From the sequence record OZ035763.1: 40,327 bases of DNA; one strand, written 5' to 3'. The notes beneath the pieces are model-generated. The model was given only the letters and a program-made list of their open reading frames with translations. It was not told the origin of the DNA and did no database searches. Shown here one piece after another: positions 2,167 through 21,048 of this stretch. Origin of the DNA: Teseptimavirus PDP351P2. A program made the position numbers and the translations under genes. The stretch's first letter is position 1. Each line of letters begins with the position of its first letter.

Positions 2167-3444
2167 GTGGAAATTCCATCTAACAGTGCAACTATGGGTG
2201 CCCGTGAGAAGCTATGGACTCTCGTTCAGGAGTTCGCTGCGTTACTTAAACCGCTGCCTTCCTCTCGCGTTATCTACCTTGGTACGCCTCAGACTGAGAT
2301 GACTCTCTATAAGGAACTTGAGGATAACCGTGGGTATACCACTATCATCTGGCCCGCTCTGTACCCAAGGACTCGTGAAGAGAACCTATATTACGCACAG
2401 CGCCTTGCTCCTATGCTGCGTGCTGAGTACGATGAGAACCCTGAGGCACTCGCTGGGACTCCTACTGACCCTGTGCGCTTTGACCGTGATGACCTTCGTG
2501 AGCGTGAGTTGGAATACGGTAAGGCTGGCTTCACACTACAGTTCATGCTTAACCCGAATCTGAGTGATGCCGAGAAGTACCCTCTGAGGCTCCGTGACGC
2601 TATCGTAGCGGCCTTAGACTTAGAGAAGGCCCCAATGCATTACCAGTGGCTTCCGAACCGTCAGAACATCATTGAGGACCTTCCTAACGTTGGTCTTAAG
2701 GGTGATGACCTTCATACTTACCACGATTGCTCCAACAACTCTGGTCAGTACCAACAGAAGATTCTGGTCATTGACCCTAGTGGTCGCGGTAAGGACGAAA
2801 CAGGTTACGCTGTACTGTACACCCTGAACGGTTACATCTACCTTATGGAAGCTGGAGGTTTCCGTGATGGCTACTCCGATAAGACCCTTGAGTTGCTCGC
2901 TAAGAAAGCCAAGCAATGGGGAGTCCAGACGGTTGTCTATGAGAGTAACTTCGGTGACGGTATGTTCGGTAAGGTATTCAGTCCTATCCTTCTTAAACAC
3001 CACAACTGTGCTATGGAAGAGATTCGTGCTCGTGGTATGAAGGAAATGCGTATTTGTGATACCCTTGAGCCAGTCATGCAGACTCACCGCCTTGTCATTC
3101 GTGATGAGGTCATTAGGGCCGACTATCAGTCCGCTCGTGACGTAGACGGTAAGCATGACGTTAAGTATTCACTGTTCTACCAGATGACCCGTATCACTCG
3201 TGAGAAAGGTGCTCTGGCTCATGATGACCGATTGGATGCCCTTGCGTTAGGCATTGAGTATCTCCGTGAGTCCATGCAGTTGGATTCCGTTAAGGTAGAA
3301 GGTGAAGTGCTTGCTGACTTCCTTGAGGAGCACATGATGCGCCCTACGGTAGCTGCTACGCATATCATTGAGATGTCTGTGGGAGGAGTTGATGTGTACT
3401 CTGAGGACGATGAGGGATACGGTACGTCTTTCATTGAGTGGTGA
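2167..3444 (+). CDS. 19: terminase large subunit, exon 2 (codons 162-586)
   Basis: Frame resumes GTG GAA ATT ([17 protein letters not shown]...), collinear with recalled T7 gp19 to the C-terminus ...GYGTSFIEW. Confidence 0.9.
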
Positions 3445-3481
3445 TTTATGAGGCCAAGGAAGGCCAATTTAAGGAGGTAAT

Positions 3482-3925
3482 ATGCTAAGTAAGAAGAAGT
3501 ATGTAGTCGATAAGGAGACTGGCTGCTGGAACTTTAAGGGTTGTAAGACGAAGAGTGGCTATGGTCGTCTCCGTGTAAATGGAGTCCATTGGATGGCCCA
3601 CAGGTATTCCCTGAGTTGTCATCTAGGCAGACCGATAGCTGACGGAATGGTTGTGATGCACCTGTGCGATAACCCATCGTGTGTTAACCCTGAGCATCTT
3701 AAGGAAGGGACTCAGAAGGAGAACATAGAGGATTGTATATCAAAAGGTAGGGCGATAAAGGCTACCGGTAAACGTGATGTGTCGAGAAGAGACCCTAGCG
3801 AGGAGCGTAAGGCTATAGTTATACGGCGCTACCATAAAGGATGGACAGCAACGTCCATAGCGAGATACCATAAGCTCTCTGTAGCGTGGGTAAAGAGGGT
3901 CATCGAGGCTTACCTAAGTGATTGA
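3482..3925 (+). CDS. free-standing HNH homing endonuclease (HNH_3-like)
   Basis: Strong SD AAGGAGG; motifs GC..GYGR, HR, HLCDNPSCVNPEHL, GTQKEN; no counterpart at this position in T7. Confidence 0.85.
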   Translation: MLSKKKYVVDKETGCWNFKGCKTKSGYGRLRVNGVHWMAHRYSLSCHLGRPIADGMVVMHLCDNPSCVNPEHLKEGTQKENIEDCISKGRAIKATGKRDVSRRDPSEERKAIVIRRYHKGWTATSIARYHKLSVAWVKRVIEAYLSD

Positions 3926-3976
3926 TATTTGAAATTAGTGATACAGGTCTAAGTATATGATTCCAGACCATTATTC

Positions 3977-3999
3977 TAATTCGACTCACTATAGGGAGA
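3977..3999 (+). promoter_or_regulatory. T7 RNAP promoter phiOR-like
   Basis: TAATTCGACTCACTATAGGGAGA, 1 mismatch to the 23-bp consensus. Confidence 0.8.
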
Positions 4000-4089
4000 A
4001 GCCTACCTAAAGATAACTATAAGACTTAAAGTGTCCTATAAGGTAGGTTGTTATTATATAGATACAACCAACATAAAGGAGGGAGACTC

Positions 4090-4239
4090 ATGTTCCGCTT
4101 ATTGTTGAACCTATTGCGGCATAGAGTCACCTACCGATTTCTTGTGGTACTTTGTGCTGCCATTGGGTACGCATCTCTTAATGGAGACCTCAGTTCACTG
4201 GAGTCTGCCGTTTGCTCTATACTCACTTGTAGCGATTAG
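4090..4239 (+). CDS. 19.5: gp19.5 homolog, 49 aa
   Basis: ATG 4090 after AAGGAGGGAG; MFRLLLNLLRHRVTYRFLVVLCAA... matches recalled T7 gp19.5; track ORF 4048..4239 is an upstream extension. Confidence 0.8.
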   Translation: MFRLLLNLLRHRVTYRFLVVLCAAIGYASLNGDLSSLESAVCSILTCSD

Positions 4240-5622: not shown

Positions 5623-5774
5623 TGGCTAACAATACGCAATACGGTCTGACCGCTCAAACTGTGCTGTTCTATAGCGACATGGTGCGCTGTGGGTTTGATT
5701 GGTCGCTCGCAATGGCACACCTTAAGGAACTGTACGAAAACAATAAGGCAATAGCTTTGGAGTCTGCTGAGTGA
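5622..5774 (+). CDS. 0.4: gp0.4 homolog, 50 aa (FtsZ inhibitor in T7)
   Basis: ATG overlaps ocr stop (TAATG); [25 protein letters not shown]... read manually; too short for the ORF track. Confidence 0.8.
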   Translation: MANNTQYGLTAQTVLFYSDMVRCGFDWSLAMAHLKELYENNKAIALESAE

Positions 5775-5825
5775 TAGGCTCAAGGTCGCTCAATACGAGT
5801 GGCCTTTATGATTATCACTTTACTT
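5775..5825 (+). promoter_or_regulatory. RNase III processing site R0.5-like
   Basis: GGCTCAAGG...GTGGCCTTTATGATT hairpin motif. Confidence 0.5.
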
Positions 5826-5834
5826 ACGGGAGTA

Positions 5835-5966
5835 ATGTATATGCTTACTATCGGTCTACTCACCGCTCTGGGTCTAGCTGTAGGCGCATCCTTTGGGAAG
5901 GCTTTAGGTGTAGCTGTAGGCTCTTACTTGGTCGCTTGTATCATCACGGGAGCACTACGCAAATGA
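5835..5966 (+). CDS. 0.5: gp0.5 homolog, small membrane peptide, 43 aa
   Basis: MYMLTIGLLTALGLAVGASFGKALGVAVGSY... read manually; hydrophobic. Confidence 0.7.
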   Translation: MYMLTIGLLTALGLAVGASFGKALGVAVGSYLVACIITGALRK

Positions 5967-6274
5967 TGAAACATTACGTTATGCCTATCCACACCAAGAA
6001 CGGCGCTACAGTTTGCACACCTGATGGGTTCGCAATGAAACAGCGTATCGAACGCCTTAAGCGTGAACTACGCATCAACCACCTGAAAACCAACTACGGT
6101 ATAGATGAATCAGTGTACCGTAAGATGTATAAGGCACAACATGGGGTCTGCGCCATATGCAAACAACCTGAAAGCATTGAAGGTAGGCAACTATGTGTTG
6201 ACCATTCGCACATTACAGGAGACGTAAGGGGGACTTCTGTGCTCAAACTGCAACAGAGGAATAGGTCTGCTTAA
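5963..6274 (+). CDS. 0.6: gene 0.6 N-terminus fused to an Endonuclease VII-like domain, interrupted by +1 frameshift at a G5 run (domain continues in +1 frame to 6329)
   Basis: MMKHYVMPIHTKNGATVCTPDGFAMKQRIERLKRELRIN matches recalled T7 gp0.6; then CAICK...VDHSHITGDVRG (EndoVII-like); +1 frame after GGGGG 6228-6232 reads LLCSNCNRGIGLLKD...YLTGKL. Confidence 0.7.
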   Translation: MMKHYVMPIHTKNGATVCTPDGFAMKQRIERLKRELRINHLKTNYGIDESVYRKMYKAQHGVCAICKQPESIEGRQLCVDHSHITGDVRGTSVLKLQQRNRSA

Positions 6275-10732: not shown

Positions 10733-10752
10733 TACGACTCAGTATAGGAGGA
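10730..10752 (+). promoter_or_regulatory. T7 RNAP promoter phi1.3
   Basis: TAATACGACTCAGTATAGGAGGA, same CAGTATA variant as T7 phi1.3. Confidence 0.8.
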
Positions 10753-10756
10753 AACC

Positions 10757-11173
10757 ATGAAAGATGCCGACCGATTCAACGCAAAGACTGAACCATGCGG
10801 AGAATGTATTCGTTGGACTGGTCGAATCCAGCCTAACGGGTACGGTCAGTTCCGATTAAACGGTAAAACGCAGTATGCACACAGGGCAGCTTACACGCTG
10901 TTCCATGGAGAAATACCAGAAGGATACGTGGTTATGCACTCCTGCGATAACAGATGGTGCGTAAACCCAAGTCACCTAACTTTAGGGACACAAGCTGATA
11001 ACCTCATCGACATGACCAGAAAAGGTAGACACAGTAAGACTGTAATACCAAACGATCACATAGAGGGAATCAGGAACGATACCCGCTCTTCCTACGTAAT
11101 AGCTAGGGAGTGGGGAGTGAACCCATCAACTATCCAAAAGATTAAATCTGGAAAGAATAGGAGATTTGTATGA
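10757..11173 (+). CDS. free-standing HNH homing endonuclease (HNH_3-like) between phi1.3 and the ligase gene
   Basis: C..C...GYG..R, AHR, VVMHSCDNRWCVNPSHL, GTQADN; paralog of the ORF at 3482; in T7, phi1.3 is followed directly by gene 1.3. Confidence 0.85.
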   Translation: MKDADRFNAKTEPCGECIRWTGRIQPNGYGQFRLNGKTQYAHRAAYTLFHGEIPEGYVVMHSCDNRWCVNPSHLTLGTQADNLIDMTRKGRHSKTVIPNDHIEGIRNDTRSSYVIAREWGVNPSTIQKIKSGKNRRFV

Positions 11174-15064: not shown

Positions 15065-15087
15065 TAATTGAACTCACTAAAGGGAGA
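15065..15087 (+). promoter_or_regulatory. T7 RNAP promoter phi3.8
   Basis: TAATTGAACTCACTAAAGGGAGA. Confidence 0.8.
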
Positions 15088-15123: not shown

Positions 15124-17278
<2,155 letters not shown>

Positions 17279-17555: not shown

Positions 17556-17825
17556 ATGTCTAACGTAGCTGAAACTATCCGTCTATCCGATACCGCTGAC
17601 CAGTGGAACCGTCGGGTTCACATCAACGTTCGTAACGGAAAGGCTACTATGGTCTACCGTTGGAAGGACTCTAAGTCCTCTAAGAATCACACTCAGCGTA
17701 TGACGTTGACAGATGAGCAAGCACTGCGTCTGGTCAATGCGCTTACCAAAGCTGCCGTGACAGCAATCCATGAAGCTGGTCGCGCAGATGAAGCTATGGC
17801 TATCCTCAACAAGATTGATAGCTAA
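17556..17825 (+). CDS. 4.5: gp4.5 homolog, 89 aa
   Basis: MSNVAETIRLSDTADQWNRRVHINVRNGKATMVYRWKDSK...; track ORF 17529..17825 is an upstream extension. Confidence 0.85.
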   Translation: MSNVAETIRLSDTADQWNRRVHINVRNGKATMVYRWKDSKSSKNHTQRMTLTDEQALRLVNALTKAAVTAIHEAGRADEAMAILNKIDS

Positions 17826-17868
17826 GAGTGGTATACTCAAGGCCGCCCAAGTGGTGGCCTTCATGAAT
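17826..17868 (+). promoter_or_regulatory. RNase III processing site R4.7-like
   Basis: GTATACTCAAGGCCGCCCAAGTGGTGGCCTTCATGAATACT hairpin. Confidence 0.5.
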
Positions 17869-17891
17869 ACTATTCGACTCACTATAGGAGG
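17869..17891 (+). promoter_or_regulatory. T7 RNAP promoter phi4.7
   Basis: CTATTCGACTCACTATAGGAGGT. Confidence 0.75.
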
Positions 17892-17895
17892 TGGT

Positions 17896-18333
17896 ATGAA
17901 GATTTGTTCTAAGTGTGGGAATGGAAAACCGCTCACCGAGTTCGGAAAGGCTTCCCGCATGAAGGACGGTCTCAGAACTTGGTGTAAGGAGTGCGTCCGC
18001 AAAGATAACAATGCGAGATACCATAAGCACGATTCTGAGAAGCGAGAGGCTCACAGGTGGAGTTCGCGCAAATCTCAAATCAAGAAGTATGGCCTGACAG
18101 TAGAGCAGTACGAAGAACTATGGAACTCTCAGGAAGGAAAGTGTAAGATATGTGGTGACGCTATAATGGCACACTCATCTGAGAGGCATAAGGTAGCTTG
18201 TATTGACCACGACCATTTGACTTTGAAGGTTCGTGGACTTCTATGTTGGCACTGCAATATTGGCTTAGGTAAATTCTTCGATTCTACAGATAGGTTGGAG
18301 AATGCCATAAGGTATCTTAAAGGAGAACTCTAA
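17896..18333 (+). CDS. Endonuclease VII-like (Endonuclease_7 family) protein with N-terminal Cys cluster, at the gene 4.7 position, 145 aa
   Basis: CSKCGNGKP...CKEC; KYGLTVEQYEELWNSQEGKCKICGD...ACIDHDHLTLKVRGLLCWHCNIGLGKF...YLKGEL; track ORF 17770..18333 is an upstream extension. Confidence 0.8.
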   Translation: MKICSKCGNGKPLTEFGKASRMKDGLRTWCKECVRKDNNARYHKHDSEKREAHRWSSRKSQIKKYGLTVEQYEELWNSQEGKCKICGDAIMAHSSERHKVACIDHDHLTLKVRGLLCWHCNIGLGKFFDSTDRLENAIRYLKGEL

Positions 18334-20291
18334 TGATTGTCTCAGACATTGAATCAAACGGTCTACTTGAGACCACTACCAAATTTCACTGTGCGGTTAT
18401 CTATGACTACAGTACAGGAGAGTATACCAACTATCGTCCCACAGACTTTAGTAAATACCTTGACGCATTAGAGGCTGAGGTTTCAAAGGGAGGACTGATA
18501 GTAGGGCATAACTTCACTAAATTTGATATCCCCGCGTTGACAAAACTTGCTAAGTTACAATTGAACCGAGAGTTCCACATTCCCCGTGAGAACTGTATCG
18601 ACACCCTTGTGCTGTCACGTTTGATTCACTCTAACCTAAAGGACACCGATATGGGTCTTCTGCGTTCCGGTAAGTTACCCGGCAAACGCTTTGGGTCTCA
18701 CGCTTTGGAGGCGTGGGGTTATCGCTTAGGCGAAATGAAAGGTGAATACAAAGACGACTTTAAGCGTATGCTTGAAGAGCAAGGTGAAGAATACGTTGAC
18801 GGAATGGAGTGGTGGAACTTCAACGAAGAGATGATGGACTATAACGTTCAGGACGTTGTGGTCACTAAGGCTCTCCTTGAGAAGCTACTCTCTGACAAAC
18901 ATTACTTCCCTCCTGAGATTGACTTTACGGACGTAGGTTACACTACGTTCTGGTCAGAATCCCTTGAGGCCGTTGACGTTGAACATCGCGCTGCATGGCT
19001 ACTCGCTAAGCAAGAGCGCAATGGATTCCCGTTTGACACGAAAGCAATCGAAGAGTTGTACGTAGAGTTAGCCGCTCGACGCTCTGAGTTGCTCCGTAAA
19101 TTGACCGAAACGTTCGGCTCGTGGTATCAGCCTAAAGGTGGCACCGAAATGTTCTGCCATCCGAGGACCGGTAAGCCACTACCTAAATACCCTCGCATTA
19201 AGACACCTAAAGTTGGTGGTATCTTTAAGAAGCCTAAGAACAAGGCACAGCGAGAGGGCCGTGAGCCTTGCGAACTGGATACCCGCGAGTACGTTGCTGG
19301 TGCTCCTTATACGCCAGTTGAGCACGTGGTGTTTAACCCTTCGTCTCGTGACCACATTCAGAAGAAACTCCAAGAGGCTGGGTGGGTCCCCACGAAGTAC
19401 ACCGATAAGGGTGCTCCTGTGGTGGACGATGAGGTACTCGAAGGAGTACGTGTAGATGACCCTGAGAAGCAAGCTGCTATCGACCTCATTAAAGAGTACC
19501 TGATGATTCAGAAGAGAATCGGACAGTCTGCTGAGGGAGACAAGGCATGGCTTCGTTACGTTGCTGAGGATGGTAAGATTCATGGTTCTGTTAACCCTAA
19601 TGGAGCAGTTACTGGTCGTGCGACCCATGCGTTCCCCAACCTTGCGCAAATTCCGGGTGTACGTTCTCCTTATGGAGAGCAGTGTCGCGCTGCTTTTGGC
19701 GCTGAGCACCATTTGGATGGACTGACTGGTAAGCCTTGGGTTCAGGCTGGTATCGACGCATCCGGTCTGGAGCTACGCTGCTTAGCCCACTTCATGGCTC
19801 GCTTTGATAACGGTGAGTATGCTCACGAGATTCTTAATGGCGACATCCACACTAAGAACCAGATGGCTGCTGAACTGCCTACCCGTGATAACGCTAAGAC
19901 GTTCATCTATGGGTTCCTTTATGGTGCTGGTGACGAGAAGATTGGGCAGATTGTTGGCGCTGGTAAAGAGCGCGGTAAGGAACTCAAGAAGAAATTCCTT
20001 GAGAACACCCCAGCGATTGCAGCACTCCGAGAGTCTATCCAACAGACACTTGTCGAGTCCTCTCAGTGGGTAGCTGGTGAACAGCAAGTCAAGTGGAAAC
20101 GCCGCTGGATTAAAGGTCTGGATGGTCGTAAGGTACACGTTCGTAGTCCTCACGCTGCCTTGAATACCCTACTGCAATCTGCTGGTGCTCTCATCTGCAA
20201 ACTGTGGATTATCAAGACCGAAGAGATGCTCGTAGAGAAAGGCTTGAAGCACGGCTGGGATGGGGACTTTGCGTACATGGCATGGGTGCAT
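18333..20291 (+). CDS. 5: DNA polymerase, exon 1 (codons 1-653)
   Basis: [13 protein letters not shown]...collinear with recalled T7 gp5 up to ...FAYMAWVH; track ORF runs into the intron to 20315. Confidence 0.92.
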
Positions 20292-20892
20292 AAACTATTT
20301 CATTGTGCACATTAAATCTGGTGAACTCGGTGAAACCCTAATGGGGCAATACCGAGCCAAGCCATAGGGAGGATATATGAGAGGCAAGAAGTTAATTCTT
20401 GAGGCCACTGAGACTGGCTGTATCATCCCTACGTCACACAAACTTAATGCCGATGGTTATTTCAGAAAGAAAACCAATGGCGTCTTAGAGATGTATCACA
20501 GAACGGTGTGGAAGGAGCATAACGGAGAAATACCTGAGGGCTTCGAGATAGACCATAAGTGTCGCAATAGGGCTTGCTGTAATATAGAGCATTTACAGAT
20601 GCTTGAAGGTACAGCCCACACTGTTAAGACCAACCGTGAACGCTACGCAGACAGAAAGGAAACAGCTAGGGAATACTGGCTGGAGACTGGATGTACCGGC
20701 CTAGCACTAGGTGAGAAGTTTGGTGTGTCGTTCTCTTCTGCTTGTAAGTGGATTAGAGAATGGAAGGCGTAGAGACTATCCGAAAGGAGTAGGGCCGAGG
20801 GTGAGACTCCCTCGTAACCCGAAGCGCCAGACAGTCAACTCAAAGACTGATGATATAGTCCGACACTCCTAGTAATAGGAGAATACAGAAAG
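20292..20892 (+). mobile_element. group I intron in DNA polymerase gene 5
   Basis: Removing 601 bp restores a 704-codon gp5 frame (WVH|DEIQVGCRTEE); exon ends in T, intron ends in G; intron GTGCAC (20305-20310) pairs with exon GTGCAT (20286-20291) giving U-G at the splice site; GATATAGTCC core-like element at 20853-20862. Confidence 0.8.
20377..20772 (+). CDS. intron-encoded HNH homing endonuclease, 131 aa
   Basis: SD GGGAGG; motifs YHRTVW, EIDHKCRNRACCNIEHL, H-T. Confidence 0.8.
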   Translation: MRGKKLILEATETGCIIPTSHKLNADGYFRKKTNGVLEMYHRTVWKEHNGEIPEGFEIDHKCRNRACCNIEHLQMLEGTAHTVKTNRERYADRKETAREYWLETGCTGLALGEKFGVSFSSACKWIREWKA

Positions 20893-21048
20893 GATGAAAT
20901 ACAAGTAGGTTGCCGTACCGAAGAGATTGCTCAGGTGGTCATTGAGACCGCACAAGAAGCAATGCGCTGGGTTGGAGACCACTGGAACTTCCGGTGTCTT
21001 CTGGATACCGAAGGTAAGATGGGTCCTAACTGGGCCGTATGTCATTGA
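20893..21048 (+). CDS. 5: DNA polymerase, exon 2 (codons 654-704)
   Basis: DEIQVGCRTEEIAQVVIETAQEAMRWVGDHWNFRCLLDTEGKMGPNWAVCH matches the recalled T7 gp5 C-terminus. Confidence 0.9.
   Translation, partial: DEIQVGCRTEEIAQVVIETAQEAMRWVGDHWNFRCLLDTEGKMGPNWAVCH

Follow-up and report, generated by a model that had tools for sequence, protein, structure and literature searches.

What does a free-standing HNH endonuclease gene do between the terminase gene (gene 19) and the phiOR promoter of a T7-like phage, and which DNA is it directed at? Several optional HNH genes are known in T7-like phages, and a preliminary description of this one proposed that it was connected with the intron-bearing gene 19 next to it. 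Here, we examine the gene, its relatives, and its surroundings in the window, i.e., the whole 40,327-nt stretch of DNA from Teseptimavirus PDP351P2 (OZ035763.1). The window represents the genome of a T7-like phage (Teseptimavirus) in circularly permuted form; its first 20 kb are 90-93% identical to JeanTinguely, CICC 80001, and 3A_8767, and no record is identical to it.

An endonuclease gene between gene 19 and phiOR

The basic features given in the preliminary description proved correct. The ORF, the Pfam and PHROG matches, and the ribosome-binding site all support a 147-aa HNH_3-type protein with a strong Shine-Dalgarno sequence; the gene does lie between the gene 19 stop codon (3442-3444) and phiOR (Table 1); and T7 (NC_001604) indeed has no such gene here, only a 75-nt spacer. 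Gene 19.5 follows at 4090-4239. The endonuclease gene is thus intergenic, has its own ribosome-binding site, and is outside any intron or intein. Full-length copies in 31 phage records and a dN/dS of 0.02-0.10 indicate that the ORF is not a product of chance.

The promoter equivalent to the downstream one is labelled phiOR in the 13a and T7 records. In a promoter consensus scan, the exact 18-nt core was found at phiOR and at five other sites in the window, and no phage promoter was found in the interval from gene 19 to the ORF. Near the gene, predicted sigma-70 promoters and terminators were no more frequent than expected by chance. The Shine-Dalgarno sequence is mostly unpaired in the predicted RNA fold, in which the segment 3452-3465 forms a hairpin. 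We considered whether this upstream hairpin might hide the ribosome-binding site from translation and rejected the idea, as the RNA fold does not predict it.

Table 1. Features of the endonuclease locus (positions in the window)
Feature	Position	Strand	Details
Endonuclease ORF	3482-3925	+	147 aa, ATG start; gene 19.4 ortholog, predicted free-standing HNH_3 + HTH endonuclease
Shine-Dalgarno AAGGAGGT	3471-3478	+	4 nt 5' of the ATG; read from sequence
HNH_3 (His-Me finger) nuclease core	3596-3724 (aa 39-81)	+	Pfam PF13392, E = 9.4e-9
C-terminal helix-turn-helix	3791-3916 (aa 104-145)	+	Pfam HTH_23, E = 2.1e-6; variable module, type A
phiOR promoter TAATTCGACTCACTATAGGGAGA	3977-3999	+	transcription start G3994; 18-nt core matches the consensus exactly
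Variant leader, 67 nt	4000-4066	+	from phiOR to the gene 19.5 ribosome-binding site
GGCC-AAGGAA-GGCC hairpin	3452-3465	+	remnant of the second hairpin of the spacer
Haplotype block	~3451-4066	+	endonuclease gene, phiOR, and variant leader

The predicted protein

Both domains of the protein score above their Pfam cut-offs: 35.2 bits for HNH_3 (cut-off 24.8) and 27.8 bits for HTH_23 (cut-off 24.6). The full length matches PHROG 6254, "HNH endonuclease" (E = 3.6e-59), and the PADLOC "homing endonuclease" model also matches (E = 3e-8); the NCBIfam search of the protein gave no meaningful family. A search of a large protein collection returned 107 homologs, of which 38 were aligned. Residues C15, G26, H40, R41, H60, C62, D63, C67, N69, P70, H72, L73, and N81 are invariant in all 38, and the window protein has every one of them, including H60, N69/H72/N81, and C15/C62/C67. 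Based on these homologs, the conserved set is predicted to cover the catalytic His, the Asn/His metal ligands, and a Cys/His cluster.

An AF2 model built from the alignment (mean pLDDT 89) has a compact, beta-rich N-terminal domain, a disordered linker (aa 96-103), and three C-terminal helices (105-118, 123-130, and 134-146). In the N-terminal domain, strands 57-60 and 73-76 and helix 78-87 form a predicted beta-beta-alpha-metal fold. The top fold match in the PDB is I-HmuI, 1u3e (Foldseek E = 2.6e-3, probability 1.00, 25% identity over 103 columns), followed by I-PpoI and SMAD MH1 domains, all of which have His-Me finger folds; for the C-terminal part, the resemblance is to the HTH domains of Fis and resolvases. 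The likeness to I-HmuI comes from fold comparison only, the sequence search of the PDB having yielded no match at E ≤ 1. I-HmuI is the HNH homing endonuclease of the DNA polymerase intron of Bacillus phage SPO1 (PDB 1U3E). Like the modelled window protein, it joins an N-terminal His-Me finger nuclease to a C-terminal helix-turn-helix; unlike the window protein, it is encoded in an intron, lacks the cysteine cluster, and has an extra DNA-binding module.

Close alleles of the endonuclease have a dN/dS of 0.02-0.10 at a dS of 0.25-0.6, and gene 19 of the same genomes has a dN/dS of 0.006-0.05 at a dS of 0.24-0.56. These similar values suggest that the endonuclease gene has been under selection for roughly as long as the phages have diverged. 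Altogether, the locus holds an intact, conserved nuclease gene under purifying selection, for which DNA cleavage is the predicted activity.

Orthologs and distribution

The gene has counterparts that are already annotated. Phage 13a (EU734174) has gene 19.4, "HNH endonuclease" in RefSeq, in the corresponding position, with phiOR and 19.5 after it, and the 13a 19.4 group agrees with the window gene in site, strand, and architecture. The closest copy, also labelled "HNH endonuclease" and at the same place, is that of Yersinia phage vB_YpYeO9 (98.6% aa and 95% nt identity). Amino acid identity to the window protein is 92-95% for the N30 group, 79% for the more distant Yersinia phage Rambo, 70% for 13a gp19.4 (aa 1-146), and 65% for Vi06, whose gene shares 74% nt identity with that of the window. 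Further orthologs occur in Yanou and IME390, and the JeanTinguely copy is annotated as "putative homing endonuclease." The distance from the gene 19 stop to the HNH gene is 40-43 nt in the window, 13a, vB_YpYeO9, N30, Vi06, and others. By these comparisons, 3482-3925 is the ortholog of 13a gene 19.4, a known, ordinary, and already annotated putative selfish nuclease gene. The gene 19.4 or "putative homing endonuclease" label stands in more than 20 genomes, and the identification brings little new biology. The name "gp19.4" occurred in no paper of the literature searched, which covered T7-like phages, Teseptimavirus, and free-standing homing endonucleases and contained no study of the gene or a close homolog. 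The paper on the fPS phages remarks only that a homing endonuclease is unusual among late genes (PMC5923468).

Counting as carriers those records in which at least 80% of the segment 3451-3976 is present, the cassette is found in 31 phage records, and 149-156 records have the T7-type empty site, T7 laboratory derivatives making up more than 100 of them. In a separate IMG/VR sampling, queried with the C-terminal part of gp19, the listed loci with gp19 at least 96% identical divide into seven carriers and eight non-carriers (n = 15), and a homolog with 49-52% aa identity occupies the same site in 4 of the 65 more distant loci listed. The gene is thus present in roughly a third to half of natural T7 relatives. 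That near-identical phages differ in having the gene is in keeping with a homing or marker-exclusion element. Incomplete or chimeric copies exist elsewhere, in AKS2022HT100GU_phi (aa 6-89 only) and fPS-53 (aa 48-139); for the Yep-phi/Berlin type, the match covers just 57% of the query.

The copies are not uniform along their length. The nuclease half of the window gene is 93% identical to 13a at the nucleotide level, whereas the HTH half (3701-3900) is only 69-71% identical to 13a (L001) and Vi06 (L018). Two C-terminal types can be distinguished among phages with the gene at this same site: type A in the window, vB_YpYeO9, the N30 group, and Rambo, and type B in 13a and Vi06. The unequal identity of the two halves looks like an exchange of the putative DNA-binding module.

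The cassette replaces a T7-type spacer

To the right of gene 19, homology between T7 and the window ends 6 nt past the stop codon (3450) and resumes at about 4067; in between, the two share only the 23-nt promoter. The same break points appear against all eight close HNH-less loci, each of which has a T7-type 75-nt spacer and, after phiOR, a T7-type 130-nt leader. The window's leader (4000-4066) is found in exactly those 31 records that have the full cassette, so the unit of inheritance here is about 3451-4066. A distant lineage (L029 versus L030 and L032) differs in this respect: its ~529-nt cassette swaps out only an ~80-nt spacer, and 92% homology resumes at phiOR, which leaves the leader outside the block.

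The replaced spacer has two small hairpins, TGCATAGGGATGCA and GACCACGGATGGTC, and can be recognised in loci that lack the HNH gene, whether their promoters are of the T7, T3, or another type. It lies at 3138-3212 in the T7 locus (L003) and is also present in L019, L022, L025, L041, and L046; across loci, the hairpin motifs are TGCATAAGGATGCA-like for one and GACCACGGATGGTC or GGCCACGGAAGGCC for the other. The T7 spacer has no match in Rfam, and the stability of its hairpins is not unusual (fold z = -0.85). A trace of the spacer survives in the window, where AGGCCAAGGAAGGCCA has 15 of the 16 bases of AGGCCACGGAAGGCCA in the HNH-less loci L019, L041, and L046, and where the remnant of hairpin 2, GGCCAAGGAAGGCC (3452-3465), stands just 5' of the ribosome-binding site. 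The 15/16-base remnant points to an original insertion immediately 3' of hairpin 2, followed by the loss of hairpin 1.

We also compared 10 carriers with 8 non-carriers for linked differences outside the block. Not one near-fixed difference was found among the 1,758 nt of spliced gene 19, of which 427 columns are polymorphic, and the 420 nt that follow the block on its right had none either. This leaves no carrier-specific "immunity" substitutions in either gene 19 or the right flank; only the replaced segment sets carriers and non-carriers apart. The lack of linked differences in the flanks implies that a target that discriminates between alleles should lie in the replaced T7-type segment rather than in gene 19 or 19.5. 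Because two divergent lineages both replace the spacer, this conserved spacer would be the most likely homing site.

The gene 19 intron

Gene 19 is interrupted in the window. Alignment with T7 gp19 places exon 1 up to 1330 and exon 2 from 2167, with an intron at 1331-2166 that matches Rfam Intron_gpI at 49 bits (E = 3.5e-11), 1 bit below the gathering score. The last base of exon 1 is the U of GGACGAU, a motif able to pair with GUCGUCC at 1342-1348, and the intron ends with G2166. Relatives of the intron were found only in the Vi06 group (88-89% nt identity) and in Yersinia fPS phages (69%). Its ORF, 1538-2140, encodes an intact predicted nuclease of 200 aa (PHROG 2081, E = 5e-45; 90.5% aa identity to Vi06). 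The intron interrupts the coding sequence of the terminase ATPase at the codons for IIADD|VE. The intron-bearing alleles (window and Vi06) have three silent changes at the junction, GCGGACGAT|GTGGA in place of the GCGGATGAC|GTTGA of all 16 intron-less sequences; the U at the 5' splice site and a 7-bp P1 pairing with GUCGUCC both result from these changes.

Given this neighbor, the preliminary description suggested that gp19.4 may cut intron-less or variant gene 19 or right-end alleles in mixed infections; in a collaborative reading, it would thereby mobilise the intron in trans. Such collaborative homing has published precedents in MobE, which helps the I-TevIII intron of T4, and in F-CphI, which acts at the psbA intron site (PMC2790892, PMC6083498). 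Moreover, an HNH gene occupies the 19.4 site in every intron-bearing record seen (the Vi06 group, fPS, and the window). However, gene 19 is uninterrupted in most carriers (13a, vB_YpYeO9, N30, IME390, HZ2R8, and others), fPS-59 (L058) has the HNH gene without the intron, and the nearest relatives of the two elements differ, the window HNH gene being closest to intron-less vB_YpYeO9 and the window intron to the Vi06 group. The window combines a type-A C-terminus with a Vi06-type intron, whereas 13a and Vi06 are both type B. As the closest HNH alleles are in intron-less phages in each of three lineages, the co-occurrence of intron and HNH gene is better read as clade background, and the claimed link between the endonuclease gene and the intron-bearing gene 19 was not borne out.

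The proposed cleavage of gene 19 fares no better. Intron-less carriers have essentially the same insertion site, GCGGATGAC|GTTGAG, as non-carriers, so an enzyme that cut it would also attack the genome that encodes it; with none of the 1,758 positions linked to carriage, gene 19 is not supported as the target. The intron has its own intact and conserved nuclease ORF, and the two elements are 1.3 kb apart. The exon flanking the intron is 83-86% identical to Vi06, compared with 89-97% to most other close relatives. We also looked for a co-conversion tract from a Vi06-like donor; none is visible, exon identity to Vi06 beside the intron being lower than that to most of these other relatives. Thus, it is very unlikely that gp19.4 mobilises the intron. 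The intron and the 19.4 gene appear to have separate histories, and cooperation between them is not supported, which removes the tempting story of a partnership with the terminase intron.

A probable homing element and its candidate target

Our preferred reading, to which we assign a probability of about 0.7, is that the window carries a free-standing homing-type endonuclease gene, orthologous to 13a 19.4, that targets rival T7-type alleles and spreads via repair. Most probably, the putative homing or marker-exclusion element is directed at the T7-type spacer that it replaced. In this scheme, the gene, without a promoter of its own, would be expressed late from class III transcripts running through gene 19 and translated from its own strong ribosome-binding site. 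The protein would consist of an N-terminal His-Me finger nuclease and, beyond a flexible linker, a C-terminal HTH that reads DNA sequence. On co-infection with a gene-less T7-type phage, the enzyme would nick or cut the DNA of the rival, and recombinational repair off the carrier genome would copy the cassette and nearby markers into it. The discriminating target would most likely be the 75-80-nt two-hairpin spacer, and possibly the T7-type leader as well. Cleavage, the cut site, and biased inheritance are what we infer from these comparisons. The predicted target is thereby narrowed to a conserved ~80-nt spacer in T7, the best-developed phage genetic system.

This reading has parallels in other phages. 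MobE, SegB, SegF, SegG, and F-CphI are, like gene 19.4, intergenic and optional among close relatives, and such enzymes are expected to cut the gene-less allele nearby and to spread with flanking markers (PMC2790892, PMC2330249, PMC6083498). The families differ: the Seg proteins belong to the GIY-YIG enzymes and F-CphI resembles EndoVII, in contrast to the HNH_3 of gp19.4. Furthermore, cleavage and biased inheritance have been demonstrated for the Mob, Seg, and F-CphI enzymes, whereas for gp19.4 both are predicted.

Three observations weigh against the preferred reading. The block is old, with a dS equal to or above that of gene 19, and its presence or absence could thus be an ancient polymorphism that ordinary recombination has reshuffled, with no drive from the endonuclease. 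In addition, strong purifying selection together with a prevalence of a third to half could mean that the gene benefits the phage. The third point is the ordinary folding stability of the T7 spacer hairpins (z = -0.85). Nor is the argument that the target lies in the replaced segment compelling by itself. I-HmuI nicks one strand, and it cuts both carrier and non-carrier DNA; discrimination between alleles is therefore not guaranteed.

A benefit to the phage is the reading that we rank second, and we consider it rather improbable. The gene would then encode a domesticated nuclease, for example a weapon against unrelated co-infecting phages or host DNA, or a DNA-binding regulator that acts close to phiOR and to the origin and packaging region at the right end. 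Its low dN/dS (0.02-0.10) holds across alleles that have diverged as far as those of gene 19, it is common among natural isolates, and it is fully linked to the variant phiOR leader in the window's lineage. However, that leader is not part of the block in the distant lineage, and 8 of the 15 close relatives, T7 among them, do well without the gene. The retention of the catalytic residues argues against a purely regulatory job, and the recurrence of divergent alleles at one intergenic site is characteristic of homing elements. That the gene is a decaying, inactive relic of a past invasion is hardly credible: the incomplete or chimeric copies in other phages would suit such a history, but the copy in the window is complete, lacks none of the invariant residues, and evolves under strong purifying selection.

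The least probable reading is an accessory packaging function, in which the HNH protein would work with the terminase like HK97 gp74. Here, the argument is one of position, as the gene directly follows that for the large terminase subunit and the right-end region is ~0.5 kb away, and a small HNH gene adjoining the terminase gene near a genome end is indeed what gene 19.4 shares with the HK97 gp74 type. The proteins themselves are dissimilar (BLASTP E = 26); gp74 belongs to PF01844 and the gp74 type lacks an HTH, whereas the window protein combines PF13392 with an HTH. The gp74-type genes are conserved and required in cos phages, whereas gene 19.4 is optional, being missing from 8 of 15 relatives, including T7, with a terminase at least 96% identical. 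T7-type phages are not known to need such an HNH factor to package their terminally redundant DNA.

Within the preferred reading of a homing-type endonuclease, one more specific version can be put forward tentatively, although we consider it doubtful in full. Here, the gene would be a right-end exclusion element: gp19.4 would cut the two-hairpin spacer or the T7-type phiOR leader, carriers would be immune by virtue of the swapped segment, the right end of the rival genome would be converted or excluded, and HTH types A and B would track variants of the target.

Other endonuclease genes and a second intron

The window has six further endonuclease-type ORFs, at 1538-2140, 5771-6274, 10757-11173, 15124-15606, 17770-18333, and 20377-20772, comprising three of the HNH_3 type, two of the Endonuclease VII type, and the gene 19 intron ORF. 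The HNH_3 paralog at 10757-11173 is 40% identical to the 19.4 protein over aa 15-116, and T7 gp2.8 (gene 2.8) is an HNH_3 paralog with 36% identity; both have an HTH-like C-terminal tail. At this level of identity, the two are seen as old, distant paralogs of the 19.4 protein, not recent duplicates. ORF 10757-11173 also differs from 19.4 in its locus and in having its own promoter-like site (10735-10752).

That site is one of three promoter-like sites with three mismatches each to the phage RNA polymerase consensus, the others being 15070-15087 and 17875-17892. The first two lie just 5' of HNH_3 ORFs, and the last is inside the Endonuclease VII-type ORF 17770-18333, which occupies the position of T7 gene 4.7. 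No homologs of T7 gp4.7 or gp5.3 were found in the window.

The DNA polymerase gene 5 (18333-21045) is split by a second group I intron of the window, at 20292-20892. T7 gp5 aa 1-653 align with 18333-20291 and aa 654-704 with 20893-21045, which places the split between H653 and D654, a catalytic motif. The insert matches Rfam Intron_gpI at 44.9 bits (E = 4.4e-10), below the gathering score of 50. It carries the HNH_3 ORF 20377-20772; exon 1 ends with U and the insert with G.
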